From Heptranchias perlo (Eukaryota), in NCBI RefSeq assembly GCF_035084215.1, contig NC_090331.1:72230001-72294000 (forward strand): a stretch of 64,000 bases of DNA, in the 5' to 3' direction. A program made the position numbers and the translations under genes. The first letter of the stretch is position 1, and each line of letters starts with the position of its first letter. Below the pieces are notes generated by a model that searched no databases, was not told the DNA's origin, and worked only from the letters and a program-made list of their open reading frames with translations. This document shows positions 1 through 53,297 of the stretch, one piece after another.

Positions 1-356
1 ACTAAACTCACCACAGGAAGTTAAGTCAAGCCATTTCAGTCTAAGCACCCTTTCAACAACCTGCTAAGTGTTGATTACTGCCAATCAACCTCTCTGGCAT
101 GGAAAATTAATTATTACAAGTATGGAGCCTCAGGTTTTAATTGTTGATGGAAATTTTAAAAATTTTTAAATTTTAACTTTTTCCATTTTAAAAAATTTTC
201 CTTTCTATCTCTTTTTTCTCTCTCTCTTCGTCCAATCTTTCTTTCCCTCTCTTTATTTCTCTTTCTGTACCTGATTTGACATTGAATTCACCCACTCTAA
301 TTTACAATTCCTTCTCAGTCCTTGGAAATGCTCACTCCTTCAATCTGATTGGTTAA

Positions 357-720
357 GGGGGCTTGACAGGGTAGGTGCTGAGAGGTTGTTTCCCATGGCT
401 GGAGAGTTTAGAACTAGATGGTATAGTCTCAGGATAAGGGGTCGGCCATTTAGGACTGAGATGAGGAGAGATTTCTTCACTCAGGGGGTTGTGAACATTT
501 GGAATTCTCTACCCCAGAGGGCTGTGGATGCTGAGTCATTGAGTATTTTCAAGGCTGAGATGGATAGATTTTTGGACACTAAGGGAATGAAGGGATACGG
601 AGACTGGGCGGGAAAGTGAAGTTGAGGTTGAAGATGAGCCATGATCTTATTGAATGGCGGAGCAGGCTCGAGCAGCCGTATGGCCTACTGCTTCTATTTC
701 TTATGTTCTTATATTCTTAC
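357..720 (+). mobile_element. CR1 LINE 3' fragment specific to unit 1
   Basis: FFTQGVVNIWNSLP ORF2 C-terminus and TTCTTAT-type tail; absent from the paralogous sites (~15940, ~32730). Confidence 0.9.
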
Positions 721-841
721 TCAGGTTCCAGATGCCCGGTTTCCTTCGCTGTGACGTTACCAACTTGTACTTTCACCAACTTGCCATGCAAAAAATTTAA
801 AAACCTAATCGTGCAAGGGCTAGTCTAACTAACGTCAGATG

Positions 842-967
842 TGGAGATGCCGGTGATGGACTGGGGTTGACAATTGTAAACAGCTTTACAACACCAAGTT
901 ATAGTCCAACAATTTTATTTTTAATCCCACAAGCTTTCGGGGGCTTTCCCCCTCCTCAGGCGGTGTG
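842..967 (-). mobile_element. Short Penelope-like terminal fragment with 13-bp TSD
   Basis: CTAACGTCAGATG at 829-841 and 968-980; absent in units 2 and 3; homologous to 39040-39206. Confidence 0.75.
927..963 (-). ncRNA. Minimal type I hammerhead ribozyme motif
   Basis: Minus strand CCGC-CUGAGGA-GGGGG AAAG CCCCC-GAAA-GC-UU-GUGG: conserved core, 5-bp stem II, palindromic AAGCUU in place of stem III, 4-bp stem I. Confidence 0.72.
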
Positions 968-1194
968 CTAACGTCAGATGCTGTTGGATGCCCTGCTACA
1001 GAAAAATCTGGGCCATGGAAGAAAATAAAGGTGAAAGGAAAAAAATGGAGATTTTGTTTAAACAACAAAGAAAACATATTGGAAGGAAAGCACAGAGCTG
1101 ATATCATGATCCAAGGTGGTGAAACTGAACTCCATTCCCAGTGGTTAAGAACTGAGACATAAATAAGTGAAGTAACATTATTTTATGACTATTA

Positions 1195-1465
1195 AAGAAA
1201 AAGAAAGGTCTTGCATTCTTATTGTGCTTCATCATATCTGACAAACATCTCAAAGTGCATCATATTTAATTAATTACTTTTGAAGTGCAATCTCCATTAT
1301 TATGTATGCAAACATGGTAAATATTTTACACACAGCAAGGTCCCACAGGCACCAATGAGATGAATGATTAGATAATCTGTTTCTTTGATCATTTGATTGA
1401 GGGAAAAATGTTGTCCATTTGGCGAGTTCCATGTCTTCTTCGAATAGTGCCATGGGATCTCTTAT
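1195..1465 (-). mobile_element. Decayed DeuSINE-like element in the crystallin 3' flank (copies at ~16323-16590 and ~33111-33380)
   Basis: Reverse complement aligns with SINEs at 44320-44650 and 53514-53910 (AGATCCCATGGCACTATTCGAAGAAG, TGTGGGACCTTGCTGTG, TGCAAG tail). Confidence 0.7.
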
Positions 1466-1717
1466 ATCAAATGTTGCTGCATTACTGATTAAACCAGAGT
1501 GTATGTTCTACTTGCATATCAATGAAAGCCCCATTCATAGTTGTATCTTAATGTCAGCATTTGTTTCTAATTAGATAGTGGTTTATTAATTAAGGTTCCT
1601 AATATAACAATTGGCATGACAATCCAGAAAAAGAAAGAAACTAATCAAAATAATCAAGTGAAAGGGATTTTATTTATGTTCACAATTCTATCCGCTTGAC
1701 TAAATCATATATTTAAT

Positions 1718-3363
1718 CTAGAAGTCCCTCATGCGCCTGAAAGATCCGATAGTTGAGTTGGCGGCACCCCAGTCACTGAATCTCCTGTATTCACCGGGTC
1801 TCATGAAGTACTGTCGGCCTCTGTAGTTGGGATGTTCATAGAAGGTCCAGTAACCGTCCATCACATGGCAGGAGTGAATGTCACGGTAGCGGAAACGATC
1901 GTAGACAGATGGACAGTCATCCATGAATTCCATCATCTGTCCTCCAAAGTCAGGCCTCTCGTAAATCCTCATTTTGTAGGTGCCTCCCCTGTACTGTAAT
2001 ATAAAATGTATAACAGTAATGATGTAGTAGCAAATATATGTGTGAGATGTTGTGAAGAATGTTCCAAAGCTGAAGCATATTAGAGCAAGAAACATGAAAT
2101 ATTGTACATAAGTCTATCAGCAAAGGTAGAAGTTAAAAGGATTTGGAAAAGGATTATTGACCATTCACTGAAAATATCCCGTTGGTGTAAAAAAGTCTTA
2201 AGTAACGTTGCTGATTATTTACTAAGACAAATCTCGAGGGCATTTGAATATATTATATATCACAAGTTATTCTAACCTTGTATAGATCATTAGTGAAATT
2301 ACATCTGGATTGTTACTGGCAGTTCTGGGCACCCATCTGCCAAAAGGGCACTGCTGCACTGGAGACTGTGTTGCTGCTCCAACACTCACTGCCTAGGCCG
2401 ACATCTAAAGAATATCTCTTTAAGTGAAATATTGTAGACCTCCTGTACCTTAACTCCATTTACCCGTCTTTATCCCATATATCTTAATATCCTTGCCTTA
2501 AAAAATACCATCAAAATCTATCATTCTCAGTTTTGAATTTTTCTATTAATCTTACCCTCAATACCTTATTGGGGGAGAGAGTTCCAGATTTCTGCTACCC
2601 TTTGCATGAAAAAATGCTTTCTGACATCATCCTGAACGGCCGAGCTCCAATTTTAAGGTTATGCCCCCTTGTTCTGGATTCCCACACCAGAGGAAATAGT
2701 TTCTCGCTATCTACCCTATGAAATCCTTTAATCATCTTAAACACATCAATTGGATTACCCATTAATCTTCTGTACTCAATGAAATACAAGACTTGTCGAT
2801 GCATCATATTATCATAATTTAACTCTTAATAAATTAACGACTCATTAGAAACTTGCCAGTAAAGTGCCAACACATTTTTAGTTCAATTTTTGTAAATCTT
2901 GCCGTGGAGTAATTGTTTGGCACTGTATTTCAATCTTTTTTCTATCATTTGAAATAGTAGAAAGCAGAAAAACATTTAAACTAAAATGTGGATTTGTCAC
3001 TAACTTACGTGTGGGTAGGTGCGACATGACCTGATGTTGTCATCGAATCCCATCCAGCGCTGGTAGTCAGGATATTCTCCCCTGCTCAGAACATACTGGT
3101 ATCCCATGTAATTGGGTCTCTCATACAGCACCCACCAGTCACTCTCAACACGGATGGAGTTACAGCGGCTGAAGTAAGAGGACAGGTCAGCACAGTCAGT
3201 ACTGCACTCATGGTGCCGACCCTGGAAGTTCCTGTCCTCGTAAAAGGTGATCTGTGGTAAAAACAATGACATGAATGAATCGATAATTTCCCAAATTTAA
3301 TGTATTTTATTAAGCATTATGAGCAAATGTGAAAAATATGAGAATTAACCTTACCTTTCCCAT
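1718..3363 (-). CDS. Gamma-crystallin gene 1 (shark gamma-S1-like), 175 aa; exons 3355-3363, 3009-3251, 1718-1993
   Basis: ATG GGA AAG|gtaag exon 1; 243-bp exon 2 ([12 protein letters not shown]...SCRTYPH) and 276-bp exon 3 ([18 protein letters not shown]...SFRRMRDF*); GT-AG phase-0 introns; four Greek-key motifs; AATAAA at 1669-1674 on minus strand. Confidence 0.96.
2440..2830 (-). mobile_element. CR1 3' fragment in intron 2, shared by genes 1-3 (also ~18310-18770, ~34365-34750)
   Basis: [16 protein letters not shown] motif in ORFs 2595-2807, 18452-18748, 34470-34814. Confidence 0.85.
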
Positions 3364-3510: not shown

Positions 3511-4443
3511 TAAAAAAAAAACCTATAGGCACTGCAGACAAAATCCGCTTATTCAGGTTTATAGATGGGGCACTGATTCTTTTCATTCTGCTTTGATGCT
3601 GTTTTAATTATTCAATGAAAAAATTGAAAGGACTACAGTCCAAAGAGCCTTTATGCTGAGTCCGGTAAATGTATTGTGACTTCTTAAGTTTGCTCTTTTA
3701 CTAAGCTCCCAAGAATGAATCATTACTGTGTTCATGACTTCTTTTACCCAAATAATATATATTAAACTACATGTAATATTTATATATTACTATTTTACAA
3801 AGAGGATTCAACTAAAGCACTGAAAGTTTATTTCCCTGTGTGAGGCAGAGGTCTGATTGATTTTATTTGTCCTGGCAATGTAATCACCATTTTAAGAGAA
3901 GCTTTCTACATAATATTGCTAATCTTGTTAGGAAAAGCATTATATAGGCATTTCCTGTGAACAAGGCTTTCTGTTCTCTGTTATTAAGTATCAACAGATT
4001 TTTGGTCACCTTGTGCAGAGAGGCCCCCATGAGTAATGAGCATCCTGTGTCATTCCTATCTCATGTGCAGAAGATGGGTAAAGGGAGTTGGCCAGAGTTT
4101 AGTAAGAATACAGGATGCTTTGGGCAAATATAGTGTCTTTGGTAAATCGGAGACAACTAATCATATGGGAGGCAATGATGTCACATGTTGTGTGTCATCT
4201 GGAATATAAGGGAGTGAAGCACATGAGACAAAGAGGATGATTGACGGGAAGCCCCATAATTGCACACGGACACGTAGAACACTTTGTGTTAATAAATGTA
4301 TACAAGCGGAGAATTAATTTGTATTTGTTGGAAAGTTCTCGGACCGAGGCTGGACACACTCAAGTAATATCAAGGACCTTCGAGAGGGGCAACTCGGAAC
4401 TTTGTATGGTGATAAACGTTACCAGATTGTACTTGAACATCTT

Positions 4444-5528
4444 GGGCCTGATGTTAGCAGGGCTGTGGGTTCTCGGCGGGGGGGGTGCTATCCGGCGCGT
4501 GGGTAACGCGCCCAGTGAAATTAGTCAGCTTCCCGCGCGATCGTAGCATCCAATCCACTAATTGGATTCACTTACCTGCTCCTCCGGGTTCCCCACTGCT
4601 GATCTGCGCGTCGGGCGGGCTGCGCATGCGCAGTAAGGTCTGTCAGCTGGCGGAGCTCTATTTAAAGGGGCAGTCCTCCACTGACAGATGCTGCAACAAA
4701 AGCAAAAATTACAGCATGGAGCAGCCCAGGGGGAAGGCTGCTCCCAGTTTAATGATGCCTCACTCCAGGTATCAATACATGGGGTGAGGAGGAGGGGGAG
4801 GACAGAGATCTTCCTCCCGGCGTGTGGGAGGAAGTGGCCTGCCTCTGCCACCAGGAAGGCCTGGCTCGAGGTGGCAGAGGAGGTCACCAGCGCAACCAAC
4901 ATATCGCCCACCTGCATACAGTGCAGGAGGCGCTCCAATGACCTCAGTAGGTCAGCCAAAGTGAGTACACGTAGTCTTTCCCCTACACTCCGTCTGCCAC
5001 ATCACTGCCCCCACCCCACATCTCCTTCAGCACTGCCAACACTACTCTGTCACATCACCCCTCATACCCATTCAAACCTCATCCTCATCTTACCTGCACC
5101 TACTCACCTCGCCAGTACTCATCCCGCCACTACCACTCAACCCAATCCTCATACAATCTCATGGCTCTATCTCATACTCACCCTCTCGTGCATCTCTTTC
5201 ACGGCCAGCCTCACTCAACCTGCCACTACCTGTGCTGCAGCCACAGGGCATGCATCACATATGTGCAGTAGGCAGCGTAAGGCAAACGTGTCGTGAGCAT
5301 GAAGGGGATGCACAAGGGTGTTTGAGGGTTCGTCATGGTTGTTACTTATATTGAATTTCAGAACAACTCACATTACATATTATATTGGCACCACTACTGC
5401 CATGTCTTCGCGAATCCTGTCTGGTTTGTGCAATAATGCCCGCTCCTGAGGATTTCTATGAGGACCCACAACTGATGCCACCCATTGTGTCACTGCAGAG
5501 TGGGTGTAGGTGTATTTGCAGGGCTCTT
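4444..5528 (+). mobile_element. Truncated non-autonomous PIF/Harbinger element (copy A)
   Basis: Starts GGGCCTGATGTTAG after CTT; Myb/SANT-like exon (AWLEVAEEV...QCRRRSNDL, donor gtgagt 4961); cut by a CR1 tail; empty site at ~21260. Confidence 0.85.
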
Positions 5529-5697
5529 AGAGTTATAGAGTCATAGAGTTATACAGCACGGATAGAGGCCCTTCGGCCCATCGTGTCCGCGCCGGCCATC
5601 AAGCCCTGTCTAATCTAATCCCATATTCCAGCATTTGGTCCGTAGCCTTGTATGCTATGGCATTTCAAGTGCTCATCCAAATGCTTCTTGAATGTTG
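5529..5697 (-). mobile_element. CR1 3' UTR/tail fragment
   Basis: Minus strand GATGGGCCGAAGGGCCTCTATCCGTGCTGTATAACTCTATGACTCTAT, a CR1-type terminal hairpin plus 8-bp repeat tail. Confidence 0.8.
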
Positions 5698-5979
5698 TTT
5701 CTACTCTTGTATTTTAACATCTTTGCAACTTATTATAACTTCTTTAAAAAGCTATTATACTTTGGAACAAAACAACTTGGATTTGGAAGTGTGCCGGAGG
5801 ACTGGAGGGTTCCCAGTGTAACACCTCTGTTGAAAAGGAGATAAAGGGGCAAACCGAATAATTATAGACTAGTCGGCAAAACATAGTCAATGGTGGGTAA
5901 AGTTCCAGGAGCCATAATACAGGATAAAATTAATACTCGCTGAGAAAACCATGGATTGAACATTGAACACAGGCACCAT

Positions 5980-8030
5980 GGGCTCGATATTACCAGGCCT
6001 GCGGGTTTCCGGCGGGTTGGGTTTCGGGAGCGTGGTCAACACGCTCGGTGAAATTAGTGGGTTGCCCGCGCGATCGTAGCAGGCAACCCACTAATAGGAA
6101 TCAATTACCTGCTCCTCCGGGGTCCGCGCTGCTGGTCTGCGCGTCGGGCAGGCTGCGCATGCGCAGTACGATCTGTCAGCTGGAGGCGCTCTATTTAAAG
6201 GGGCAGTCCTCCACTGACAGATGCTGCAACCAATGGAACAAATTACAGCATGGAGCAGCCCAGGGGGAAGGCTGCTCCCAGTTTAATGATGCCTCACCCC
6301 AGGTATCATCAGATGGGGTGAGGAGGAGGGCGAAGACAGAGATCTTGCACCCGGCGGGCGGGAGGAAGCGGCCAGCCTCTGCCACCAAGAAGGCCTGGCT
6401 CGAGGTGGCAGAGGGGGCCACCTGCGCAACCAACATATCGCCCACCTGCATACAGTGCAGGAGGCGCTGCAATGACCTCAGTAGGTCAGCCACAGTGAGA
6501 ACACGAAGTCTTTCCCCTACACTCCATCTGCCACAACACTGCCCCAACCCCACATCTCCTTCGGCACCACCAACACTACTCTGTCACATCACCCCTCATA
6601 CCCACTCAAACCCCATCCTCATCTTACCTGCACCTACTCACCTCGCCAGTACTCATCCTGCCACTAACACGCGACCCAATCCTCATACAATCTCATGGCT
6701 CTATTCCATACTCACCCTCTCGTGCATCTCCCTCACGGCCAGCCTCACTCAACCTGCCACCACCTGTGCTGCAGCCACAGGGCATGCATCACATATGTGC
6801 AGTAGGTAGCGTAAGGCAAATGTTACGTGAGCATGAAGGGGGTGCACAAGGGTGTCTGAGGGTTTGCCATGGGTGTTACCTATATTGAATTTCAGAGCAA
6901 CAAACATCACACATTATATTGGCACCACCACTGCCATGTCTCCGCGAATCCTGTCTGTTGTGTCCAATAATGCCCGCTCCTGGGTATCACTATGAGGACC
7001 CACCACTGATGCCACCCATTGTGTTACTGCAGAGTAGGTGCAGGTGTATTTGCAGGGCTCTTCTGAGCAGACGACTGAGAGACATCCGAGGTGTAGCCGG
7101 CTGCACCCTGGAAGGATGCGGAGGAGAAGTTGTGGAGGGCAGTGGTGACTTTGACAGCGACAGGTAAGCAGTTGGTGCTGGGGCCAGCCAGGAGCCGCTC
7201 GGCATGAAAGAGCCTGCAGATCTCCACGACTACATGTCGAGCAAATCTGCGCCTCCGTGTGCACTGCTGCTCGGAGAGGTCCGGGGAGCTGCGCCTCGGT
7301 CTGTGGACCCTGTGGCGAGGGTAGTGCCCTCTGCGATGCGTCTCTCTCTGCGGTAGCCCTCCCTCCTGCTGTGCAGGTGGGCGTGCAACAACACCGTGTT
7401 GGGGGGCTCCACGTCTCTGCGGCGGACGGCGTGGACTGCGAGGCTGCTGGGGCTGGTCATGCTGTTCGTCCTCCGAGGGTGTCCACGCACCACCCATCTG
7501 GCAGGTGTTGGTCTGAGGGGTTGTGCAGGGTAGGCGGGTGGTTCCTCGGACTGGGGCTGCAGTTTCGTGTCGGTCTGTCCTCTGGCTTGGCGGGGGGTGG
7601 TGGAGGGCAGGGGTTGCCCTATGTGACGCGGTGGCCTCCTGCGTGGGTGAGGGCTCTCCCCCGTGGGGTGCACCTTGGCACCTGCCACAGGCTGCTGGCT
7701 GCAACACGCCTGGTTGGAGAGAGACTGTTTCCCCCAGTGTGTGAAACAGTCTGCGATGCAGGTGAAATCCCACACTTCCTCTTTTGACAGCTGATTCAGC
7801 TCATTAACTGACCTCAACAAGCAAGGTAAGTACTCTCAAGTGGAACCCCGCTGGCTTTAATTGCCTGCGGGATTCCCACCAGCGGGGGCCACGCACGCAG
7901 CCCCGCACGTCATCGGGGAACCCGGAAGTGGTCGGGATCGTGGCGCGATCCGGTCACGTGACCTCATATCGGGATTTTCGGGGCCCCCCCGCTGGAAACC
8001 CGCAGGAAACCTGACCCTAAAATCGAGCCC
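5980..8030 (+). mobile_element. Non-autonomous PIF/Harbinger element with both ends (copy B, 2051 bp)
   Basis: TIRs GGGCTCGATATT / AAAATCGAGCCC; 3-bp TSD CAT (5977-5979, 8031-8033); single CAT at the empty site ~22129; Myb-like exon on +, HARBI1-like N-terminus (LPVAVKVTTAL..FSSASFQ) on -. Confidence 0.92.
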
Positions 8031-8145
8031 CATGAATTTGTAAAAGGTAAGGCATGCTTGATAAATATAATAGTTCTTTGAGGAAATACCAGAGTGTATC
8101 AATAAGGTAAATGCAGTAGGTGTTGAGTCGGTAGATTGTCAAAAG

Positions 8146-10612
8146 TTTTTTTTATTTGTTCACGGGATGTGGGCGTCACTGGCGAGGCCGGCATTTATTG
8201 CCCATCCCTAATTGCCCTTGAGAAGGTGGTGGTGAGCCGCCTTCTTGAACCGCTGCAGTCCGTGTGGTGACGGTTCTCCCACAGTGCTGTTAGGAAGGGA
8301 GTTCCAGGATTTTGACCCAGCGACGATGAAGGAACGGCGATATATTTCCAAGTCGGGATGGTGTGTGACTTGGAGGGGAATGTGCAGGTGGTGTTTTTCC
8401 CATGTGCCTGCTGCTCTTGTCCTTCTAGGTGGTAGAGGTCGTGGGTTTGGGAGGTTCTGTCGAAGAAGCCTTGGTGAGTTGCTGCAGTGCATCCTGTGGA
8501 TGGTACACACTGCAGCCACAGTGCGCCGGTGGTGAAGGGAGTGAATGTTTAGGGTGGTGGATGGGGTACCAATCAAGCGGGCTGCTTTGTCCTGGATGGT
8601 GTTGAGCTTCTTGAGTGTTGTTGGAGCTGCACTCATCCAGGCAAGTGGAGAGTATTCAATCACACTCCTGACTTGTGCCTTGTAGATGGTGGAAAGGCTT
8701 TGGGGAGACAGGAGGTGAGTCACTCGCCGCAGAATACCCAGCCTCTGACCTGCTCTTGTAGCCACAGTATTTATGTGGCTGGTCCTGTTAAGTTTCTGGT
8801 CAATGGTGACCCCCAGGATATTGATGGTGGGGGATTCGGCGATGGTAATGCAGTTGAATGTCAAGGGGAGGTGGTTAGACTCTCTCTTGTTGGAGATGGT
8901 CATTGCCTGGCACTTGTCTGGTGCAAATGTTACTTGCCACTTATCAGCCCAAGCCTGGATGTTGTCCAGGTCTTGCTGCATGTGGGCACGGACCGCTTCA
9001 TTATTTGAGGGGTTGCGAATGGAACTGAACACTGTGCAATCATCAGCGAACATCCCCATTCCTGACCTTATAATGGAGGAAAGGTCATTGATGTAGCAGC
9101 TGAAGATGGTTGGGCCCAGGACACTGTCCTGAGGAACTCCTGCAGCAATGTCCTGGGGCTGAGATGTTTGGCCTCCAACAACCACTACCATCTTCCTTTT
9201 TGCTCAGTACGACTCCAGCCACTGGAGAGTTTTCCCCCTGATTCCCATTGACTTCAATTTTACTAGGGCTCCTTGGTGCCACACTCAGTCAAATGCTGCC
9301 TTGATGCCAAGGGCAGTCACTCTCACCTCACCTCTGGAATTCAGCTCTTTTGTCCATGTTTGGACCAAGGCTGTAATGAGGTCTGGAGCCGAGTGGTCCT
9401 GGCGGAACCCAAACTGAGCATCGGTGAGCAGGTTATTGGTGAGTAAGTGCCGCTTGATAGCATTATCGATGACACCTTCCATCACTTTGCTGATGATTGA
9501 GAGTAGACTGATGGGGCGGTATTTGGCCGGATTGGATTTGTCCTGCTTTTTGTGGACAGCACATACCTCTGCAACTTTCAACATTCTTGGGTCGATGCCA
9601 GTGTTGTAGCTGTACTGGAGCAGTTTGGCTAGAAGCGCGGCTAGTTCTGGAGCACAAGTCTTCAGCACTACAGCCGGGATGTTGTCGGGGCCCATAGCCT
9701 TTGCTGTATCCAGTGCACTCAGCCGTTTCTTGGTATCACGTGGAATGAATCAAATTGGCTGAAGACTGGCTTCTGTGATGGTGGGGATATCGGGAGGAGG
9801 CTGAGATGAATCATTTGCTCAGCACTTCTAGCTGAAGATGGTTGCAAATGCTTCAGCCTTGTCTTTTGCACTCACGTGCTGGACTCTGCCATCATTGAGG
9901 ATGGGGATGTTTGCAGAGCCTCCTCCTCCTGTTAGTTGTTTAATTGTCCACCACCATTCACGACTGGATGTGACAGGACTGCAGAGCTTTGATCTGATCC
10001 GTTGGTTGTGGAATCGCTTAGTTCTGTCGATCGCATGTTGCTTCCGCTGTTTAGCATGCATGTAGTCCTGAGTTGTAGCTTCACCAGGTTGGCACCTCAT
10101 TTTTACGTACGCCTGTGCTGCTCCTGGCATGCTCTTCTACACTCCTCATTGAACCAGGGTTGATCCCCTGGCTTGTTGGTAATGGTAGAGTGAGGAATAT
10201 GCCGGGCCATGAGGTTACAGATTGTGCTGGAATACAATTCTGCTGATGGTCCACAGCGCCTCACGGATGCCCAGTTTTGAGTTGCTAGATCTGTTCTGAA
10301 TCTATCCTATTTAGCACGGTGGTAGTGGCACACAATACTTTGGTGGTGTCCTCAGTGTGAAGACGGGACTTTGTCTCCACAAGGACTGTGCGGTGGTCAC
10401 TCCTACCAATACTGTCATGGACAGATGCACCTGCAACAGGTAGATTGGTGAGGACAAGGTCAAGTAGGTTTATCCCTCCTGTTGGTTCGCTCACCATCTG
10501 CCGCAAGCCCAGTCTGGCAGCTATGCCCTTCAGGACTCGGCCAGCTTGGTCAGTGGTGGAGCTACCGAGCCACTGTTGGTGATGGACGTTGAAGTCCCCC
10601 ACCCAGAGTACA
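8146..10612 (-). mobile_element. 5'-truncated LINE ORF2 (APE endonuclease remnant + RT), CR1-group but distinct from the other CR1s here
   Basis: GDFNVHH, YRPISLLS, GVPQDSVLGP, FADD motifs in ORFs 8208-10641; poly(A)-type 3' end at ~8146-8156; empty site at ~22245. Confidence 0.9.
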
Positions 10613-11539
10613 TACAGATTACATGCAACAACGTACCACATAGGAAGCTTGCTGAGGAAATGAAGGCAAACAGTGTTAAAGAGAATGTGGCAACATGAGC
10701 GGGAAATTGGTTAAACAACGGAAAACAGAGAGCAGTGGTTCATGGATAGACTGGAGGAGTGTAAACAGTGGTGTCCCCCAGGGTCAGTGTTGTGACCGTT
10801 GCTCTTTATATATGTATATACACGCACATTTTGGACTTGGGAATTGGGGCACAATATCAAAATTTGCAGACAATACAAAAATAAGGATCATGATAAATAG
10901 TGAGGAGGACTGTATACAACTTCAGAATGATGTAGACAAGTTAGTAGATTGGGCAGATTGATGTCAGGTAAAATTTAATGCAAAGAAATGTGAGTTTGAC
11001 ACGTTTTGGAGCATGTACGCTAAATGATAAAACGTTAAAAGGAGTCGAGGAGCAGAGAGACTCAGGGGCTCAGATGTACAAATTATTAAAAGTGGAAGGA
11101 AAAGTTTTTTAAAGCTGTTAAAAATAAAAACATATGGAAACTTAGTTTATAATAAGGAGCTTAGAGTACAAATCAAAGAGGTAGCACTAAGTGTATACAA
11201 GTCATTGATTAGAGTACAGTTAGATTATTGCATCCAGTTTTGGGCAGCTTGCTTTAAGAAGCATTTCAAGGCTATGGAGAAGTTGCAAAGCTTCACTAAG
11301 ATGAGTAGAGCCTAGAGGAAATGACGCTCATTTCATTAGAAAAAAGATATTTAGGAGGACCTCTGATTGTGCTGCTCAAAATGATGAGGAGTTTTGGTGA
11401 GGTAAATCAGTGAAAACTGTTTCCAGTGGTCAGCAAATTTCCAGAGGTCAGCAAACTGTTTCCAGTGGTCAGCAAGTTGTTCACAAGAGGGCATAAATTT
11501 AAGATAATTCCAACAGAATGAAAGGGAAGATTACGATAT

Positions 11540-11980
11540 CCTCGCTCGGACGCATGATTTGGAAAACAAAAAAATAGGGAGTGTGTTTAGATGGCTGGGG
11601 GAAGATGGGAGGAAGCCAACAAAAACTCTGGTGGGTAAAACAAAGAAATATATCCAGGAGAAAATAGGAACTTGTGTTTTATTAGTTCAAATCTGTCAGA
11701 CTTTGTGTGAGGTGGAGACTAAAATGAAGAAACTAGTAAAGGAGAAGCAAATTAAAGTGGATGATTGGAAAGCAGGAATCTTGTTATTTCAATTACAAGA
11801 GTTCGGGAGGTTGAGAGAGGAAGTTGAAATTCTGAAGGGTAGGTTGATAGATGAGGAAGAAAAGAAGAACAAAAGGAAAGATGGAGGGACCGGAGGGAGG
11901 ACACGGACTGTGAGTTGAAGTTTGAATATGTCCAGAATGAGATTAAGTAGCAAATATCAGAAATTGAAAATTGATTTAAG
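11540..11980 (+). mobile_element. Possible gag-like relic of an LTR retroelement (paralog at ~23040-23470)
   Basis: Charged coiled-coil ORF 11559-11918; in unit 2 it lies upstream of an integrase relic. Confidence 0.4.
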
Positions 11981-14693
11981 TGGAAGACTATAGAACGTTC
12001 AGAGGAGAAGTGAAAAAGGAAATAAGAGGGGCAAAGAGAGAGTATGAGAATAGACTGGCGGCCAACATAAAAGGGAGTCCAAAAATCTTCTACTGTAAGA
12101 TTTTCAAAATTCACAGATCCCCCAAAACTCGCAGAAAAACTCTAAAGAAAAGGACTTTGGACTCTTTTCTAACCATTTCAGGGTGACTCACACACGCGCC
12201 GCACCAGGAAGCATCAACCAGGGAAAAGTACTTTTCGAGGAATCCACGTCCTTTAAGGGACTCGCTTCCTCGTAGGGGCGACTGTAAGAATTCTGGGAAT
12301 TCACCTTTTCCCTGAGTATGGAAAAACTTTGGCCATTGACTGAAATCCTAAGATGGAAGGATAGGTGAGAGGCCACCAGACGAATCCACAAAACACATGG
12401 AATGTGGGAGAATTACTGCTTCAGACATGTCTCTGTTTTAAAGCAAAACCTGCAGCAGGTGGTCAACACTCACTGCCATTGAAAGAGGCAACTGCTCCAG
12501 ACATGGTGGGGCCATGTCTTTGTTTTAAAGCAAAACCCATCAACACCTAGGATGTTGGATACAAAAGGAAGCCTTATGGGACAAGCTCTAAAATCGGAAT
12601 TAACAATGCCCCATCGGGAGAAGCAATTACAACATGATGAGGGACCATCAAAAAGCCATCAAAGATTCTTAAGGACTTTGTAAGAACTGTTTAAACAGAC
12701 ATGAAGTGTTTTTTTTTGAAGTGACGAAGACCATTGTAAGAGAGGGATACACAAGTGGAAACTCGAAACCTCTCTCTCGCTCTCTCTCTCTCTCTGATTC
12801 TTGCTGGTGCTTGTGTGCTGCTTGTCTTGTTCTGCCTGTCTCTGGAAGGAAGAGCAACTTCCAGCGAACAACAAGGAAAGCAGTTCGACAGGGAAGGTCA
12901 GCAGCTCTAGAAGCAGGCCGACACACAAGAAGAAACCAGAGGAACAGCCCCAGTGACCATCAGACACCTCGTGGCAACAAGGGCCTTACGAAACAACCAA
13001 CCGAATATTGCCACCAACCAATCGGGTAATATTGGGCCACCGCGACCAAAGAAAACCAACTCGGGAGAAAACCGAAGATCCGCAAAGTTTCCACTCGACA
13101 ATCTTTTTCTGACTTACCTCTGGGTGAATTACTGTCAAGGGTTCGTTTGGTGAGCATTATCTCTGGCCCTTTAGAGTCCAACTTAGCTAGTGAAGTGGGA
13201 TTAGGAGGGGTGAGGTATCTTTCTACTGTAATTTCCCTCGACTGTACTGAAGTGTTCCCCTTTTTATTAGAGTGTTAAGATTGTTGTGTTGTATTTCCTC
13301 TCTTGAATAAAGGTCAAAGTTTCTTGCACCAAAACCAGTTGTCTGCTGCACTTTGTCACAACCCCCAAATAAGTCCAAGGTCTAGAACCCAGGGAGTGGG
13401 AGCGATTCGGACCGCTCAGAAGTCAGAGGTGAAGCTGACACACACCACCACCCCCTACACTACAGACATGTAACCAGTAAACGGGTAGTAAGAGGACGAG
13501 TGGTGCCAATTAGGGACCATAAATGAGATCTACTCATGGAGGCAGAAGGGATGGCTGAGGTACTAAATGAGTACTTTGCATCAGTCTTTACCAAGGAAGC
13601 AGATGCTGCCAGAGACTCAGTAAAGGAAGATATAGTTGAGATACTGGATGAGCTAAAAATTGATAAAGAGGAGGTACTTGAAGTGCCAGCTGTACTTAAA
13701 ACAGATAAGTCACCTGGTCCAGATGGGATGCATCCTAGGTTGCTGAGGGAAGTATGGGTGGAAATTGCGGAAGTACTGGCCATAATCTTCCAAACATCCG
13801 TAGATAGGGGGGTGGTGCCAGAGGACTGGAGAATTTCAAATGTTACACCCTTGTTCAAAAAGGATGTAAAGATAAACTCAGCAACTATAGGCCCGTCAGT
13901 TTAATCTCAGTGGTGGGGATACTTCTAGAAATCATAGTCCGGGACAGAATTAACAATCACTTGGATGAGTGTGGATTGATTAGAGAAAGCCAACATGGAT
14001 TTGTTAAAAATAAATTGTGTTTAACTAACCTGATAGAGTTTTTTGATGAAGGCAATGCAGTTGATGTGGCGTATATGGACATTCAAAAGACGTTTGATAA
14101 AGTGCTGCATGGTAGGTTTATCATCAAGATTGCGGCCCATGGAATAAAGGGGGCAGTAGTAACAAGGATACAGAGTAATGGTGAATGGTTGTTTTTTGGG
14201 CTGGAGTGAGGTGTACAGTGGTGTTCTCCAGGGGTCCGTGCTGGGATCACTGCTTTTCTTGATATATATTAATGACTTGGACTTGGGTGTACAGGGCACA
14301 ATTTCAAAATTTACAGATGACACAAAATCATGAAGGGTCTAGACAGAGTAGATAGAGAGAAACTGTTCCCATTGGTGGAAGGATCAAGAACCAGAGGAAT
14401 AGATTTAAGGCGATTGGCAAACAAACCAAAGGTGACAGGAGGAAAAAACTTTTTTACACAGCGAGTGGTTAGGATCTGGCATGCACTGCCCGAGGGAGTG
14501 ATGGAGGCAGATTCAATCATGGCCTTCAAAAGGGAACTGGATAAGTACTTGAAAGGAAATAAATTGCAGGGCTATGGGGAAAGAACAGTGGGTGGGACTA
14601 GCTGGATTGCTCTTGCCTAAAGCCGGCCCGGACTCGATGGGCCAAATGGCCTCCTTCTGTCCTTTAACCTTTCTATGATTCTATGATTTTATG
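11981..14693 (+). mobile_element. CR1 ORF2 fragment with internal deletion, interrupted by a solo LTR
   Basis: LNEYFASVFT, KSPGPDGMHPR, SQHGF motifs; DDTK joined directly to the C-terminal region at ~14328; TTCTATGA tail. Confidence 0.9.
12094..13459 (+). mobile_element. Solo LTR, 1366 bp
   Basis: TGTA...TACA termini; 4-bp TSD CTAC (12090-12093, 13460-13463); AATAAA 13306-13311; excision restores the host CR1 sequence. Confidence 0.85.
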
Positions 14694-16853
14694 GTATTAA
14701 TGTACAATCCAGTGAAAGTCAGGACCATGTAGTTGAGAATAGTTAATTAATAGCTTCGTCTCGGAGATATTTGTGTGCTTGCCTATACTGAACAATGAGA
14801 AAACTGCATTTAATAGCCTGGCCACCACCCGAGACATTGAGAGACCCTTCAGGGGGAGCTAGGCAAAGTTCTCCAGGCACCCCACCGATCTTTTGATAAG
14901 ATAACATGAATGCCCAAAAGTGGCTTGTTTCTTCTGATATCATGTGTGGCATGATCTTGGGGTATTGGTGTGTGTGCAAATGTGATCTGTTGTGTGTGAG
15001 GCAACTAGCAGGCGGAAATGCATGATGAAGATTCATTGAAGAACAGGTCTCAGACATGCTCAGTTATTTGACAACGGCACGACATGAAATGTTTAATGTG
15101 GCTCAGGAGAGTGAGAAACCTCCATAGAGAAATCGACTCAGTAATGGAACAATCAGGATAGAGTAAACACTGGTACCTGTCAGAGGGATTGAAATTAAAG
15201 GAAAGAGGGCCATAGAAATATGGATTTCCAAAATTCTGGGTTGAGTTCCTTTGAGTTAACAATGAAATTGGGACAACTGAGGGCTAGAGAGAAATAATAC
15301 TTAGCAAAAATATCCACAAGATGGATATTGGTTATCGGAGAGCTGGAGAATCTTTTACGTCCACGATTTCTTAATAATATGGCATACTGTTGTTTTTTGC
15401 ACATTGAATTATGATTTTCTTTCTCTGAATCATGAAGTGTAATATTAACCAAATGAAACCTAGACTAGACGAGCAAATGGCTGCTCTGCCGTTAGCTTCA
15501 GGAAAACGGCATCTCAATGTCTGCCTCACCAATGAAATTTATTGAATGGCGTGAAGTTGCCGTATTTGCGTGGTAGATACAAACTAAACTCACCACAGAA
15601 AGTTAAGTCAAGCCATTTCAGTCAAAGTAACCTTCTAATGACCTGCTAAGTGTTGATTACTGCCAATCAACCTCTCTGACAGTGAAAATTAACTATTACA
15701 AGAATGGAGTCTCATTCCTTCAGGTTTTAATTGTTGTTGGATATTTTAAAAATGTAAAATTTAAAATTTTAACCTTTTTTTTACTTTTCCTTACTTTCTT
15801 TTTTTCTCTCTTAGTCCAATTTTTTTTCCCTCCTTATTTCTCTTTCTGTACCTGATTTCAAATTGAATTCACCCACTCTAATTTACATTTCCTTCTCAGT
15901 CCTTGTTAATTTCTCACACCGTCAATCTGATTGGTTAACAAGATACACAGTTACTTGTCCTGTTCACGCAGGTCCCAGATGCCCGGTTTCCCTCGCTGTG
16001 ACGTTATCAGCTCGCACTTTCAGCAATTAGCCATGCAAAAAATTTAAATCCCAAACGGGCAAGGGCTAGTCTAATTAACATCAGATGCCATTTGATGCCC
16101 TGCTACAGCAAAATACAGGGCCATGGAAGAAAAGAAAAGGTGAAAGGGAAAAAATGCTGATTTTCTTTGAACAACAAAATAAACATATTGAAAGGAATGC
16201 ACAGAGCTGATATCATGATGGATGGATTATCCAAGGTGGTGAAACTGAACTACATTCCTAGTGTTAAGAACTGGGATATAAATAAATGAAGTAACATTAT
16301 TTGGCGGAGGTTTATGACTATTAAAGAAAAAGAAAGGTCTTGCATTCTTATTGTGCTTCATCATATCTGACAGACATCTCAAAGTGCATCATATTTAATT
16401 AATTACTTTTGAAGTGCAATCTCCATTATTATGTATGCAAACACGGTAAATATTTTACACACAGCAAGGTCCCACAGGCACCAATGAGATGAATGATTAG
16501 CTAATCTGTTTCTTTGATAATTTGATTGAGGGAAAAATGTTGTCCATTTGGCGAGTTCCATGTCTTCTTCGAATAGTGCCATGGGATCTCTTATATCAAA
16601 TGTTGCTGCATTACTGATTAAACCAGAGTGTATGTTCCACTTGCATATAAATTAAAGCCCCGTTCATAGTTGTATCTTAATGTCAGCATTTGTTTCTAAC
16701 TAGATAGTGGTTTATTAAGTAAGATTCCTGATATAACGATTGGCATGACAATCCAGATAAAGAAAGGAACACATCAAAATAATCGAGTAAAAGGGATTTT
16801 ATTTATGTTCACAAATCTATCCGCTTGACTAAATCATATATTTCAGCAATGAT

Positions 16854-19459
16854 CTAGAAGTCCCTCATGCGCCTGAAAGATCCGATAGCTGAGCTGGTGG
16901 CGCCCCAGTCACTGAATCTCCTGTATTCACCGGGTCTCATGAAGTACTGGCGGCCTCTGTAGTTGGGTTGTTCATAGAAGGTCCAGTAACCATCCATCAC
17001 ATTGCAGGAGTGAATGTCACGGTAGCGGAAACGATCGTAGACAGATGGACAGTCATCCATGAATTCCATCATCTGTCCTCCAAAGTCAGGCCTCTCGTAA
17101 ATCCTCATTTTGTAGCTGCCTCCCCTGTACTGTAATATAAAATGTGTAACATTAATGATGTAGTAGCAAATATATGTGATATATATTGAAGAGTGTTCCA
17201 AGATTGTAGCAAATTAGGACAAGAAAAATGAAATATTGTACATAAGTCTATCAGCGAAGGTAGAAGTTAAAAAAGATTTGGGAAAAGATTATTGACCATT
17301 CACTGAAAATATCCAGTTGGTGTGAAGTCGTCAGTAATGATGCTGATCATTTACTAAGACAAATCTCGAGGCATTTGAATATATTGTAAGTCACAACATG
17401 TTATTCTAACCTTGTGTAGGTCATTAGTGAAATTACATCTGGATTGTTACTGGCAGTTCTGGGCACCCATCTACCAAAAGGGCACTGATACACTCGAGAG
17501 ATTTCAGGGAAGAGTGACAAGGATTTCATCATGGCACTTATGTTTCTCAGTCATGAAGAAAGACTGACAAAACTGAACTTGTTTTCAGTGGTCAAAAGGA
17601 GATAGGAGACAAAATATGATCCTTTGAAGTGCTGGGAGGAGTGGAAAGTGTAGATGTTAGCAGGCTACTTCCTTTAGACTGTGAATATCTTATGTTGAGA
17701 AAAGAATTTCCCCCTCAAAAAATAAGTAGATGTGTCACAAAGACGGCCAAGGAAATCAGTTAATTTATTGTTATTCGACTCATTCGAAAAATGTAAATAT
17801 ATGGTTAAGGCCAAAATTTAAGTTTAAGAGACTAAATCAGCTGTTGGAAGTGTCATGCCACAGAAAGAAACCATTCAAAGTTACTTAATGTAGTTTGTAC
17901 GGTTCAATCAATATTCTGGAGCTTCATCAGATTATCTCGGGGATCAGGGGAAACTGCTGAACCTTTCACTTGGAGAGTAATTAGATTTGGTCAAGTCTCC
18001 AGCAGGATAAAGTGTCTGTGTGTTAGTAGAGGATCAAACCTAATTATGATGGTCCACATGACTGACTTTGATGCTGTTCCAACTCTCACTGTCTAGGCCA
18101 ATACCTAAGCAATAGCCCTTTAAGCAAAATATTTTAGGCCTGTTTGTGTTTAGGCACAATTCACCTGAAGTACTGCCTTTACCAACGTTAGCAGAATCCT
18201 TACTTGAAGCCTTGGTCAAATCTGAACCCAGGTAGTAGAGAAGTACACATGAACACGATGAATAATTCTGCAGCATTTATACATTAATTTTTTTGTGTAT
18301 CTATTGCACATGAACTTAGGGACAAGAGTAGGCCATTCAGCCCCTCGAGCCTATTTCGCTGTTCAATTAGATCAAGGCTGATCTGTACCTTAACTCCATT
18401 TACCCGTCTTTATCCCTTATCCTTGAATATCCTTGCCTAAAAAAAAATCGATCAAAATCTATCAATCTCAGATTTTAATTTTTTTGTTGACCTGCTCTCA
18501 ACAGCTTTTTGGGGGAGAGAGTTCCAGATTTCTATTACCCTTTGCGTGAAGAAGTGCTGCCTGACATCACCCTTGAATGGTTTAGCTGTAATTTTAAGGT
18601 TATGCCCCCTTGTTTTGGAATCCCCCACCAGAGGAAATAGTTTCTCTCTATCTACCCTATGAAATCCTTTAATCGTCAAAAACACCTTAATTAGATTACC
18701 CATTAATCTTCTATATTCAAGGGAATACAAGACTTGTCTATGCAACATATCCTCATAATTTAACTCTCAGTAAATTAACAACTAATTAGAAAGATGCCAG
18801 TAAATTACAAACACATTTTTAGTTCTATTTTTCTAAATCTTGCCATGGGTTTATCATTTGGCACTGTATTTCAATCTTTTTCCTAACATTTGAAATAGTA
18901 GAAAGCAGTAAAATGTTTAAACTAAAATGTGGATTTGTCAATAATGACAGAAAAAGGGAGTGACAATAATAATCTTTAAATGAATATAAAAGACTATTAC
19001 ATAATTAATGTGGGGGCTGAGAATAAATTACATAAAATGACAGAAAACTATTGATGAGCCATCCTATCAACAAATGATTTGAAACTGGTAATTAGCCTTA
19101 TTTTCAACTTACGTGTGGGTAGGTGCGACATGACCTGATGCTGTCATCGAATCCCATCCAGCGCTGGTAGTCAGGATATTCTCCCCTGCTCAGAACATAC
19201 TGATATCCCATGTAATTGGGTTTCTCATACACCACCCACCAGTCACTCTCAACACGGATGGAGTTGCAGCGACTGAAGTAAGAGGACAGGTCAGCACAGT
19301 CAGTACTGCACTCGTGGTGCCGACCCTGGAAGTTCCTGTCCTCGTAAAAGATGATCTGTGGTGAAAAAAATGACATGAATCATTCGATAATTTCCTAAAT
19401 TTAATGTATTTTGTCAAACATTATTTGAAAAATATGAGAATTAACCTTACCTTTCCCAT
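16854..19459 (-). CDS. Gamma-crystallin gene 2, 175 aa; exons 19451-19459, 19113-19355, 16854-17129
   Basis: Same 9/243/276 exon structure, open frame, canonical splice sites; AATAAA 16798-16803. Confidence 0.96.
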
Positions 19460-19514
19460 TTTGACCTTCACAGTTAGTCAAACAACCGCCTGGACATAGC
19501 GCTGTTTCATACAG

Positions 19515-19610
19515 CTCGGTATTTATAAGCTGGACTGAAACTCCACTGTAGGGAATGCTTTTGTTATTCTAATGGTTTTAACAGTGTATATCAGCAAAAA
19601 AGCAAATAAA
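19515..19610 (-). promoter_or_regulatory. Proximal promoter of crystallin gene 2
   Basis: TATAAA 19522-19527 (minus); near-identical to the gene 1 promoter. Confidence 0.7.
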
Positions 19611-20255
19611 AAAAAAACCTATAGGCACTGCAGACAAAATCCCCTTATTCAGGTTTATAGATGGGGCACTGATTCTTTTCATTCTGCTTTGATGCTGTTT
19701 TAATTGTTCTATGAAAAAATTGAAAGGACTACAGTCCAAAGAGCTTCTATGCTGAGTCCGGTAAAGGTATTGTGACTTTGTAACATTTGCTCTTTTACTA
19801 TGCTTCCAGGAATGAATCATTACTGTGTTCATGATTTCTTTTACCCAAACTTACATTGCCCAATACGTATTAATCTACATGTAACATTTATAAATCACTA
19901 TTTTGCTAAGAGGGTTCAACTAAAGCACTGAAAGTTTATTTCCCTGTGTGAGGCGGAGGTCTGATTGATTTTATTTGTCCTGGCAATGTAATCACCATTT
20001 TAAGAGAAGCTTTCGACATAATATTGCTAATCTTGTTAGGAAAAGCGTTATATAGGCATTTCCTGTGAACAAGGCTTTCTGTTCTCTGTTATTAAGCATC
20101 AACAGATTTTTGGTCACCTTGTGTAGAGAAGCCCCCTTAAGTAATGAGCATCCTGTGTCTTTCCTATCTCATGTGCAGAAGATGGGTAAAGGGAGTTGGC
20201 CAGAGTTTAGTAAGAATACAGGATGCTTTGGGCAAATATAGTGTCTTTGGTAAAT

Positions 20256-30582: not shown

Positions 30583-33500
30583 CTTATCTGCAGATATCAC
30601 AGCCTGGTGATAATTTGAACGACAAATTGCCTTTAAAAGGCTCAGCTTTAACCCAGTAAAGTTATTTGATATCTTCTTAGACAGAGGGCTGTGGGGGGTG
30701 GGGGGATATGGGAGTTACATCCAAAAGTAATTACAAGCACTTCTGTCTCTACTCTAAAACAACCAAGCCTATGCATAATTTGTTGGTGAAATTGAAATTG
30801 ATAAGATAAATTGAAATGAGTTGCTATTCAAGCAATCAAGAAGGGAAAATTTCGCTGAAGTTTAAGAGGATAATCAAATTATATTTTTAATAAAAGGAGT
30901 CCAGTCTAAGTGGTTCCTGCACAAGGCTGTGTATCAAGGAAGAAATTTTGGGGGGAATAAAATTGAACATTGACAAGTCCTGTCAGTCCAGCAATACTGC
31001 TCTCTGGAAATGAGATAATTTTGAAATGATGAAATGGACTCCAGTACAATGTAATGAGATATTTTGAGAAATAAAAAGCAGTCCAAGAAGAGTTTAAGTA
31101 AAATGAACAAAAAAAATGTATTGAGATACTGGACCAAACTGTAAACATTGTATTGGACAGTAAAGTTCCTCCAGGGCTCAAGAATGAGATGAAATGGTAA
31201 TATAATGGGATGCGTAAAATTGGATGAGAGGAAGTGATTGAGCATATAAGATAGAAACAGGGAAATTACACCATCAAATGGGAATTTTTAAAAGGTCATT
31301 GCCCTGGGTGACTCTAGGTGAATTTCAGGAACCGAACCAAAGGGGTTAGGGAAAGATGCCTGATTGCATCCATGAGTAACATAAATCATCTGGACATGAA
31401 TCACCAAAGGACATCAATCTGTTATCAGTGTATAATCTAGTGAAAGTCAGGAACGTGTAGTTGAGAATAGTTAATTAATAGCTTTCTCTTGGAAATGTTT
31501 GTACCCTTGCCTATACTGAATAATGAGTAAATTGCATTTGATAGCCTGGCCACTGTCCGAGACATCAGTACCCTACAGGAGGAGAAAGACAAAGACCTCC
31601 AGACACCCCACCGATCTTTTGATAAGACAATGTGAAAGCCCAAGAATGACTTGTATCTGGTGTCATGTCCGGCATGATCTTGGGATACTGGTGTGTGCAA
31701 ATGTGATATGTTGTGTGTAAGGCAACTAGCAGGCGGAAATGTAAGATGAAGATTCACTGAAGAACAGGTCTCAGACGTGCTCAGTTACTTGACAACAGCA
31801 CAACATGAAATGTTTAATGTGGCTCAGGTGAGTGAGAATCCTTTTAAGCAAGGCACTGCCACATGCTCCATAGATAAACCGACTAATTAATGAAACAATC
31901 AGGATAGAGTAAACACTGGTACCTGTCAGACGGATTGAAATTAAAGGAAAGAGGGCCATAGAAATTTGGATTTCCATATTTCAGGGTTGGGTTCCTTTGA
32001 GTTAACAATGAAATTGGGACAACTGTGGGCTAGAAAGAAATAATACTTAGCAAAAATATCCACAAGATGGATATTGGTTATCGGAGAGCTGGAGAATCTT
32101 TTACATTCATGATTTCTTAATAATATGGCACACTGTTGTTTTCTGTGCATTAGAACATAAGAACATAAGAATTATGATTTGCTTTATCTGTATCATGAAG
32201 TGTAATATTAACCAAATAAAACTTAGACTAGAAGAGCAAATGGCTCGAGATAGGTATGTTGTGCTGCTCTGCCATAGGCTTCGTTAAAACGGCATCTCAC
32301 TGTCTGCTTCACCATTGAAATTTATTGAATGGCATGAAGTTGCACTATTTGCGTGGTCGATACAAACTAAACTCACCTCAGAAAGTTCATTCAAGTCATT
32401 TCAGTCTAAGTAACCTTTCAACAACCTGATAAGCGTTAATTACTGCCAATCAACCTCTCTGGCACGGGAAATTAACTGTTACAAGTACAAAGTCTCATTC
32501 CTTCAGGTTTTAATTGTTGTTAAATATTTTAAAAATGTAAAATTTTAAATTTTTGCATTTTTTTTTTACTTTCCTTCCTGTCTCTTTTTTCATTCTCCAT
32601 GAAACCAATCTTTCTTTCCCTCTCTTTAATTTTCTTTCTATACCTGATTTGACGTTGAATTCACCCACTCTAATTTATAGTTCCTTCTCAGTCCTTGTTA
32701 ATTTCTCACTCCTTCAATCTGATTGGTGATCAAGATACACAGTTACTTGCCCTGTTCACTCAGGTCCCAGATGCCCGGTTTCCTTCACTGCGACGTTATC
32801 AGCTCACACTTTCAGCAACCATCCATGCAAAAAATTAAAAAACTTAAACACGCAAGGGCTAGTCTAATTAACGTTGGACGCCGCTTGATGTCCTGCTACA
32901 GCAAAATCTGGGCCATGGAAGAAAATAAAGGTGACTGGAAAGAAATGGAGATTTTGTTTAAATGACAAAAAAGACATATTATTGCAGGAAGGTATGCACA
33001 GAGCTGATATCATGATGGATGGATGATCCAAGGTGAAAAAACTGAACCACTTTCCGAGTAGCTAAGAACTAGGACATAAATAAGTGAAGTAACATTATTT
33101 TATGACTATTAAAGAAAAAGAAAGGCCTTGCATTCTTATAGTGCTTCATCATATCTGACAGACATCTCAAAGTGCATCATATTTAATTAATTACTTTTGA
33201 AGTGCAATCTCCATTATTATGTATGCAAACATGGTAAATATTTTACACACAGCAAGGTCCCACAGGCACCAATGAGATGAATGATTAGATAATCTGTTTC
33301 TTTGATCATTTGATTGAGGGAGAAATGTTGTCCATTTGGCGAGTTCCATGTCTTCTTCGAATAGTGCCATGGGATCTCTTATATCAAATGTTGCTGCATT
33401 ACTGATTAAACCAGAGTGTATGTTCCACTTGCATATCAATGAAAGCCCCATTCATAGTTGTATCTTAATGTCAGCATTTGTTTCTAATTAGATAGTGGTT

Positions 33501-39039: not shown

Positions 39040-39206
39040 TACCAACTGACTATATATGCTGTGCCCATATGCATCTCTTCACTTCACCTGATGAAGGAGC
39101 AAAGCTCCGAAAGCTTGTGATTTCAAATAAAGCAGTTGGACTATAACCTGGTGTTGTGCGCCTCCTTCCATTTGTCCACCCCAGTCCATCACCGGCATCT
39201 CCACAT
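39040..39206 (+). mobile_element. Short Penelope-like terminal fragment with 8-bp TSD
   Basis: CTAGGCTA at 39032-39039 and 39207-39214; shares GTTGGACTATAAC.TGGTGTTGT and CCCCAGTCCATCACCGGCATCTCCA with 842-967. Confidence 0.75.
39084..39120 (+). ncRNA. Minimal type I hammerhead ribozyme motif
   Basis: UCAC-CUGAUGA-A-GGAGC AAA GCUCC-GAAA-GC-UU-GUGA. Confidence 0.7.
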
Positions 39207-53177: not shown

Positions 53178-53297
53178 TTAGAATCCCTCATGCGCCTGAA
53201 AGATCCGATAGTTGAGCTGGTGGCGCCCCAGTCACTGAATCTCCTGTATTCACCGGGTCTCATGAAGTACTGTCGGCCTCTGTAGTTGGGTTGTTCA
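53178..53297 (-). pseudogene. Orphan 3' portion of a gamma-crystallin exon 3
   Basis: Reads [37 protein letters not shown], then a 1-bp deletion before the stop; upstream part of exon and acceptor absent; AATAAA 53129-53134. Confidence 0.9.

Follow-up and report, generated by a model that had tools for sequence, protein, structure and literature searches.

The DNA examined here, referred to as the window, is a 64,000-nt stretch of the Heptranchias perlo genome (NCBI RefSeq assembly GCF_035084215.1, contig NC_090331.1, positions 72,230,001 to 72,294,000 of the forward strand). At least five crystallin units stand in tandem here, and their last exons are 85–98% identical (1718-3363, 16857-19358, 33645-35321, 41962-48229, 53183-53308, 54513-59230 and about 63931-64000, together with positions 8841-9113 of a further locus, L100); the exon at 53183-53308 appears partial. 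A G+C-rich tandem array with strong G/A skew and a period of roughly 34/68 bp occupies 59800-62420. The feature of interest lies downstream of the intact, three-exon beta/gamma-crystallin gene 1 (Table 1). An earlier reading of the letters alone, hereafter the sequence-only reading, had described it as a 126-bp insert that is bounded by a perfect 13-bp duplication and missing from both paralogous crystallin units. Both points were borne out: the longest direct repeat around the insert is the 13-bp target-site duplication (TSD), without a mismatch, and in both paralogs, 85–87% identical to the insert flanks, the flanks align joined (15966-16087 with 16076-16429 in paralog 1; 32758-32874 with 32869-33217 in paralog 2). 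The right junction is spanned by contigs without any difference in three runs of a single sample that is probably the source of the assembly. No clean empty-allele joint occurred among the five contig joints listed, which come from one individual and from contigs that drop variants, and runs of two other organisms yielded short pieces only at the insert region. Element homology extends to 838, where family ends pile up in the contigs, so that the left TSD copy overlaps the element by its final 4 bp. Compared with 17 tailed sister arms of its subfamily (subfamily A), the insert shows 124–127 identities over 130 sites, i.e., 3–6 sites differ, and those arms differ from one another by 2.5 on average. 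The same reading had called the insertion recent; judged by sister identity, the perfect TSD, and the empty paralogs, the insertion is young and postdates the crystallin gene duplication. The target site is itself an older, MITE-like, high-copy repeat of ~150 bp with short inverted termini, shared by all three crystallin units (at about 724-1013 once the insert is removed; starting near 15970 and 32760 in the paralogs); summed contig depth over it reaches ~10,000–20,000 vs ~16 in unique flank.

Table 1. Position and strand of the features at and around the insert, in window coordinates
Feature	Position	Strand	Remark
Left TSD copy	829..841	.	exact 13 bp
4-nt microhomology with element 3′ end	838-841		within left TSD copy
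130-nt leader copy, 3′ part of pseudo-LTR, Penelope-like element subfamily A	838..967	-	
AC-rich "tail", about 35 nt	838..872	-	between the family's two 3′ end-points
Minimal type I hammerhead	927..963	-	sequence, fold, family alignment, covariation
Stem I	963-960/930-927	-	
Hammerhead core	959-953 and GAAA 938-935	-	
Stem II	952-948/943-939	-	as first read, within 952-939
Palindrome AAGCUU	936-931	-	replaces helix III
Predicted cut	between 931 and 930	-	from motif position
Right TSD copy	968..980	.	exact 13 bp; junction bridged by contigs
ATTAAA	1270-1265	-	between gene 1 and insert
AATAAA signals of gene 1	1674-1669 and 1587-1582	-	
Beta/gamma-crystallin gene 1, intact, three exons	3363-3355, 3251-3009, 1993-1718	-	likely bystander

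The minus strand of the insert carries the minimal hammerhead letter for letter as first read, with core, stems I and II, and palindrome all in place; the catalytic boxes CUGANGA, GAAA, and UH are present without a helix III. In the family register, 952 lies unpaired between A9 and G10.1, with stem II at 4 bp; this extra base is a G in the window copy and is able to extend stem II. A covariation alignment of 27 rows was drawn from 59 distinct variants in the loci, with frequent variants favoured. Its core is invariant save for N7 in rows that were picked by core pattern, and column 14 is unpaired and G15 pairs with C27 in 27/27 rows, the G and C being partly fixed by the search patterns. Both sides change in 5 of the 11 pairs (three in stem I, two in stem II) among rows that represent subfamilies sharing descent, stem I pair 3 varying as C-G, U-G, and U-A; stem covariation across genomic copies, whose absence the sequence-only reading had listed among its refuting conditions, is thus found. 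Paired cells amount to 90.9% of this alignment vs 31–48% for slid partners, and percent paired and covariation score exceed all 500 shuffles; two type-counting measures, the pair count included, were not above the shuffles (96/500 and 324/500). The subfamily's 33-nt hammerhead pattern has 1,859 exact matches in the 3.25-Gb genome and none in the control. It is this copy number, together with the covariation, that provides the real support for the motif. The number of core matches in the window (7 vs 5.1 expected) and the ordinary fold stability (z -0.2 to -1.0) are within chance and neither is counted as support; a covariance-model search, also proposed earlier, returned no hammerhead family among the five Rfam matches at E≤10 in positions 1-3000. 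In folding, stem I has a predicted pair probability of 0.97–0.98 in isolation vs 0.0 in the read-through context 1060-842. The AAGCUU self-duplex is computed at -4.3 kcal/mol, and palindromic 15.2/16.2 pairs would permit a dimeric helix III; the cofold minimum of a hammerhead pair differed from the catalytic dimer. From copy number and covariation, the hammerhead is a real, conserved structure of the element, with cleavage itself a prediction.

A relaxed family pattern matches the genome 83,193 times (control 9), or about once per 39 kb. Seven regions, chosen as head-to-head pairs 2–4 kb apart, were fetched, and in all seven the subfamily A hammerhead is joined to pieces of a Penelope-like element (PLE) ORF. 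Translated, these pieces show RT motifs and a CX4CxxC linker, as well as a GIY-YIG-type domain that has two internal Cys between its VVY and YIG boxes. Pfam places RVT_1 above its cut-off (E=9e-11) and GIY-YIG below it (E=0.0014–0.0047), and a PDB search with the ORF gave one weak RT match (E=0.42). A parent element with a Penelope RT and GIY-YIG ORF, which had been suggested as something to look for, therefore exists, and the assignment of the motif to the Penelope-type minimal hammerheads is supported by family matches, covariation, and parent alike. No uninterrupted full-length single copy was seen among the regions inspected. When combined, the pieces fit the plan of a single ORF in which RT is followed by a C-terminal GIY-YIG domain with CCHH; the CX2-5CxxC zinc finger of the linker appears as CX4CxxC between RT and EN; and pseudo-LTRs (pLTRs) stand in partial tandem or inverted, with a one-sided 30–40 bp tail and a TSD. 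Under the criteria in the available text of Craig et al. (bioRxiv 10.1101/2021.04.23.441226), these translated pieces make the element an EN+ PLE of the Neptune/Nematis type, the clade name following from the linker motif only. In tandem copies of sister subfamilies (L015, L022), the ORF ATG lies at +121/+122 from core position C3, which corresponds to window 837. The leader copy begins 8 nt upstream of C3 and stops one base short of the ATG position; with the ATG at 837 and the homology ending at 838, the insert comprises the leader of the element as far as the start codon. The insert can thus be identified by sequence as the 5′ leader of a PLE of the Neptune/Nematis type. It is solo rather than one of the tandem units, each with a hammerhead, that define non-LTR retrozymes, and sister short copies occur solo or head-to-head.

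Several related features lie nearby. A second solo leader at 39083-39208 (+) belongs to an older subfamily, is 81% identical and tailed, has GGAGC/GCUCC as stem II, starts ~5 nt before the core, and shows no obvious TSD by eye. At 2–8 kb to the left of the window, downstream of crystallin gene 1, the hammerheads of locus L098 (G000:C7:72226330 -, 72228176 +, 72222692 -) comprise a head-to-head PLE pair with an ORF end and another hammerhead. The window leader carries ATTAAA and AATAAA right after the predicted cut (914-925, minus strand), from which the pLTR may double as the element's 3′ end signal.

A pattern located 3′ of the hammerhead has 4,906 matches, and the ends of the family's insertions were surveyed in the first 100 of them, all on one contig; owing to the position of the pattern, this sample is blind to 5′ ends. 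The 100 arms represent 68 insertions. Counted from the first base of stem I, their 3′ ends fall at +85..+101 (52 arms) and +123..+130 (48 arms), two groups about 35 nt apart. Every one of 32 head-to-head pairs combines a tailed with an untailed arm, TSDs of 12–14 bp accompany 22 of the 31 scored inverted pairs, and 22 of 31 tail junctions overlap by 1–7 nt, a figure without chance control. The two end groups and the tailed/untailed pairing agree with the known tail signature and with the internal RT starts described for an anole element (PMC11167929, available portions). Two of the 68 insertions, both head-to-head (L133/L134 and L191), have the hammerhead palindrome as their exact centre, adjacent to the cut site, which leaves a start at the cut ambiguous for them; they look as if two cDNA ends had annealed there or one had snapped back. 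In some head-to-head pairs (L080, L012, L027), the arms best match different subfamily parents, which hints at two templates per insertion.

The 5′ ends were mapped relative to C3 with 39 references. Among the 100 arms, 22 begin at +1..+45, 44 at -1..-19, six at -24..-38, and one at -39..-164; the remaining 27 are counted as long, four of them with a 5′ end in a poly-T tract at -170..-172. When the 68 insertions are tallied instead of arms, 34 stops lie in 0..-19, where a constant stop rate would give 5.9 (Poisson P=2e-15, for a bin picked after the data were seen). Hammerhead cleavage was considered as the source of the 5′ ends and rejected. None of the 100 arms of the one-contig sample starts at the cut site (+27..+29). 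Genome-wide, subfamily A starts number 9 at the cut site, 15 at the control position +31, 63 at -13, and 21 at -15, each start being counted only with two non-parental bases before it; 23 of the 63 starts at -13 follow AA and may instead be fold-back junctions with a start at -12. These counts show no excess at the cut site in subfamily A and leave cleavage there at most a rare source of ends. With its start at -8, the window copy falls within the pile-up and also crosses the cut site; as its sequence is present on both sides of that site, its template was uncleaved.

A TATA-like box is conserved 36–47 nt upstream of the core, in degenerate form in subfamily A (TTAAAATG). The start follows this box, which lies 27–31 nt upstream of it, and the upstream edge of the pile-up shifts with TATA spacing: it is at -15..-18 for TATA at -42..-47 (12/33), at -13 for TATA at -40/-41 (13/40), and at -7..-10 for TATA at -36..-39 (13/40). 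Over all loci, 89 of 113 short arms start 27–41 nt after the TATA T; since presence of the core was a condition of their selection, these arms are informative at the upstream edge only. In subfamily A, starts are most frequent at -13, on the A of an initiator-like TCATTT. The start is read here against the initiator consensus and the usual TATA spacing of 25–31 nt. Taken together, the 5′-end pile-up, the TATA tracking, and the absence of ends at the cut site suggest that the short copies are likely run-off cDNAs reaching the 5′ end of an uncleaved RNA. From these DNA ends, we infer an RNA start just ahead of the hammerhead. In the available text of earlier studies, the promoter of Drosophila Penelope is reported as internal and TATA-less (PMC2377424), and a putative TATA plus Inr in the pLTR of rotifer Pen2a has already been suggested (PMC3846280).

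The most serious alternative retains the same element and internal start and attributes the 5′ ends to a structural or sequence-dependent RT stop, or to snap-back, on long read-through RNA. A hairpin closed by AAATG/CATTT sits at the pile-up in several subfamilies and moves with it; since this complementary pair, which flanks the start region, also shifts with the TATA box, TATA tracking alone is compatible with a structural stop. The fuzziness of the edge (21 starts at -15 vs 63 at -13, and the six arms at -24..-38, which lie between TATA and the proposed start) points the same way, as does the interpretation of palindromes at inverted junctions as self-priming in the accessible part of PMC3846280. 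However, the pile-up hairpin is weak: at -2.7 to -4.7 kcal/mol, it is less stable than stem II and than the hairpins at -45..-90 (-9 to -12 in 4/5 parents), which stop 0/21 insertions. Moreover, the subfamily A mode is at the upstream edge (-13) and not at the 3′ foot of the stem, and solo copies (L065, L084, L088, L089) likewise terminate at -10..-13. A stop of this kind is therefore regarded as unlikely.

The preferred reading, which we hold with good though incomplete confidence, is that the insert is a solo hammerhead leader of an endonuclease-encoding PLE, made by an RT that started at the ORF ATG and ran off an uncut RNA, and that it is inert at its present location. The same sequence forms the pseudo-LTR of elements whose ORF holds an RT, a linker zinc finger, and a GIY-YIG-type domain. 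In these elements, the TATA-like box would start the RNA about 5–18 nt before the core, at about -13 in subfamily A, which would give a 5′ UTR composed of the hammerhead, about 90 nt, and the tail. Next, by analogy with the in vitro behaviour of the anole element (PMC11167929, available portions), the endonuclease would cut the target with a ~13 nt stagger and RT would prime at one of two internal sites, either at the ATG, where the tail ends, or some 35 nt before it; the window copy may have used its 4 nt of microhomology for priming. On the uncleaved template of this copy, RT would have ended some 5 nt before reaching the RNA start. Repair would then produce the TSD, with a solo copy arising if one DNA end is primed and the common head-to-head pair if both are; long copies may derive from read-through tandem RNAs. 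The two ends of the copy would thus reflect where the element itself begins copying and, probably, where its RNA starts, and the RNA that was copied was uncleaved. The hammerhead itself would be under selection in active parents and probably cleaves only as a dimer or with an element protein, and the window copy, which is without a TATA box and without a partner nearby, is likely to be inert at its site.

It is improbable that the 126-nt unit instead propagates itself as a non-autonomous element of SINE or retrozyme type, with the hammerhead processing its short RNA and mobilisation occurring in trans. Many copies are of nearly equal short size, and animal retrozymes come from PLE pseudo-LTRs according to the part available of a recent preprint (bioRxiv 10.64898/2026.07.22.740005), but the 5′ ends of the copies differ base by base and do not match the cut site, their variants are shared with ORF-bearing copies, the short copies are without a TATA box, and no short-unit tandem arrays occurred among the loci inspected. 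A role on read-through RNA of crystallin gene 1, through co-transcriptional cleavage aiding termination or decay, is least probable of all: the core is intact, the insert shares the strand of the gene and follows its first AATAAA by about 700 nt, and more same-strand hammerheads follow about 4.6 and 8.3 kb further on, but the insert is young, missing in both paralogs, and one of about 83,000 family motifs, stem I is predicted to be unformed in the read-through context, an antisense family arm 2.8 kb further on could pair with the insert RNA, single minimal hammerheads did not cleave in vitro (PMC4209133, as far as available), and the anole hammerhead required protein (PMC11167929, likewise). 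The strand and the distance of ~700 nt to a poly(A) signal, as given in the sequence-only reading, are correct for the first signal, but a second AATAAA also precedes the insert. With the copy lacking a TATA box and lying behind two poly(A) signals, its hint at a crystallin role is unsupported, and at one family motif per 39 kb, nearness to a crystallin gene is expected by chance. No RNA set was listed with coverage of 700-2000, and two contig sets guessed to be RNA leave much of 1040-1690 uncovered; these observations are neutral as to expression. What remains of that reading is the Penelope hammerhead, its parent, the covariation, and the youth of the copy, and not its meaning for the crystallin gene; the insert is likely unrelated to the neighbouring lens-protein gene.

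Published work already covers minimal hammerheads in PLE pseudo-LTRs as well as solo copies, tails, and inverted pairs. A 5′-end pile-up, or its reading as strong stop or transcription start, was not found for PLEs in the main texts of the open-access literature, nor was a report of a Penelope/Neptune retrotransposon from a shark genome, for which supplements may hold cartilaginous-fish alignments. We lean towards the view that the tens of thousands of short inserts are fossil "strong-stop" cDNAs that map in vivo a TATA/initiator RNA start just before the ribozyme and two RT starts, the tail reaching to the ATG, and that RNA which gets copied has hardly ever been cut by the ribozyme. If this is true, PLEs make an LTR-like short first-strand product and the hammerhead acts at another stage of the cycle. 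The window locus is ordinary and the value lies in the family: young, very abundant, and residing in a vertebrate, it supplies thousands of insertion ends, which predict an RNA start at about -13 and two RT starts and argue against hammerhead cleavage forming the template 5′ end. The family is useful in this respect since the replication cycle of PLEs and the role of the hammerhead are posed as open questions in the available text of PMC4209133 and PMC11167929.

The comparisons that follow refer to the available portions of the cited reports. The hammerhead shares with the minimal motifs of metazoan PLEs (Cervera and De la Pena 2014, PMC4209133) the catalytic boxes without helix III, the palindromic 15.2/16.2, the unpaired base before G10.1, the G10.1-C11.1 pair, a short helix I, and the location in the pLTR, as well as an occurrence as thousands of solos, opposite-strand pairs, and many covarying subfamilies. 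Pseudo-LTR motifs of this type showed no cleavage singly and low cleavage as dimers, and their solos were called probably truncated PLEs, the ends being unmapped in that text. Helix II, with 4–5 bp here, differs from the 7–8 bp of Schistosoma minimal hammerheads, and the 83,193 pattern matches exceed the 4,000–9,000 given there for coelacanth and Xenopus, which come from a different search.

PAc, a Poseidon element of Anolis carolinensis (Frangieh et al. 2024, PMC11167929), resembles the present family in that two internal RT starts delimit the tail, both DNA strands are cut and extended, and uncleaved RNA is the main template; for PAc, the available text has no RNA-seq ends at the cut site. 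Despite these similarities, several differences exist. The ORF of PAc begins inside the hammerhead whereas the hammerhead lies about 120 nt upstream of the ATG here, and RT starts 111–118 nt into the ORF in PAc while the tail ends at the ATG in this family. As described there, PAc primes without homology, in contrast to the 1–7 nt overlaps at 22/31 tail junctions reported above without chance control, and Poseidon is without the linker zinc finger that this family has. Agreement is also found with the Neptune/Nematis EN+ PLEs of Craig et al., which have a C-terminal GIY-YIG with an internal Cys pair and a CX2-5CxxC linker. EN+ PLE insertion units, as described by Craig et al. and by Arkhipova et al. 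(2013, PMC3846280), likewise feature head-to-head pLTRs and a one-sided tail; such a unit consists of an inverted 5′-truncated copy, a 30–40 bp tail, and a TSD. Rotifer solo pLTRs without TSDs were ascribed to recombination or deletion (PMC3846280), whereas the copy in the window is a solo arm with a TSD of its own.
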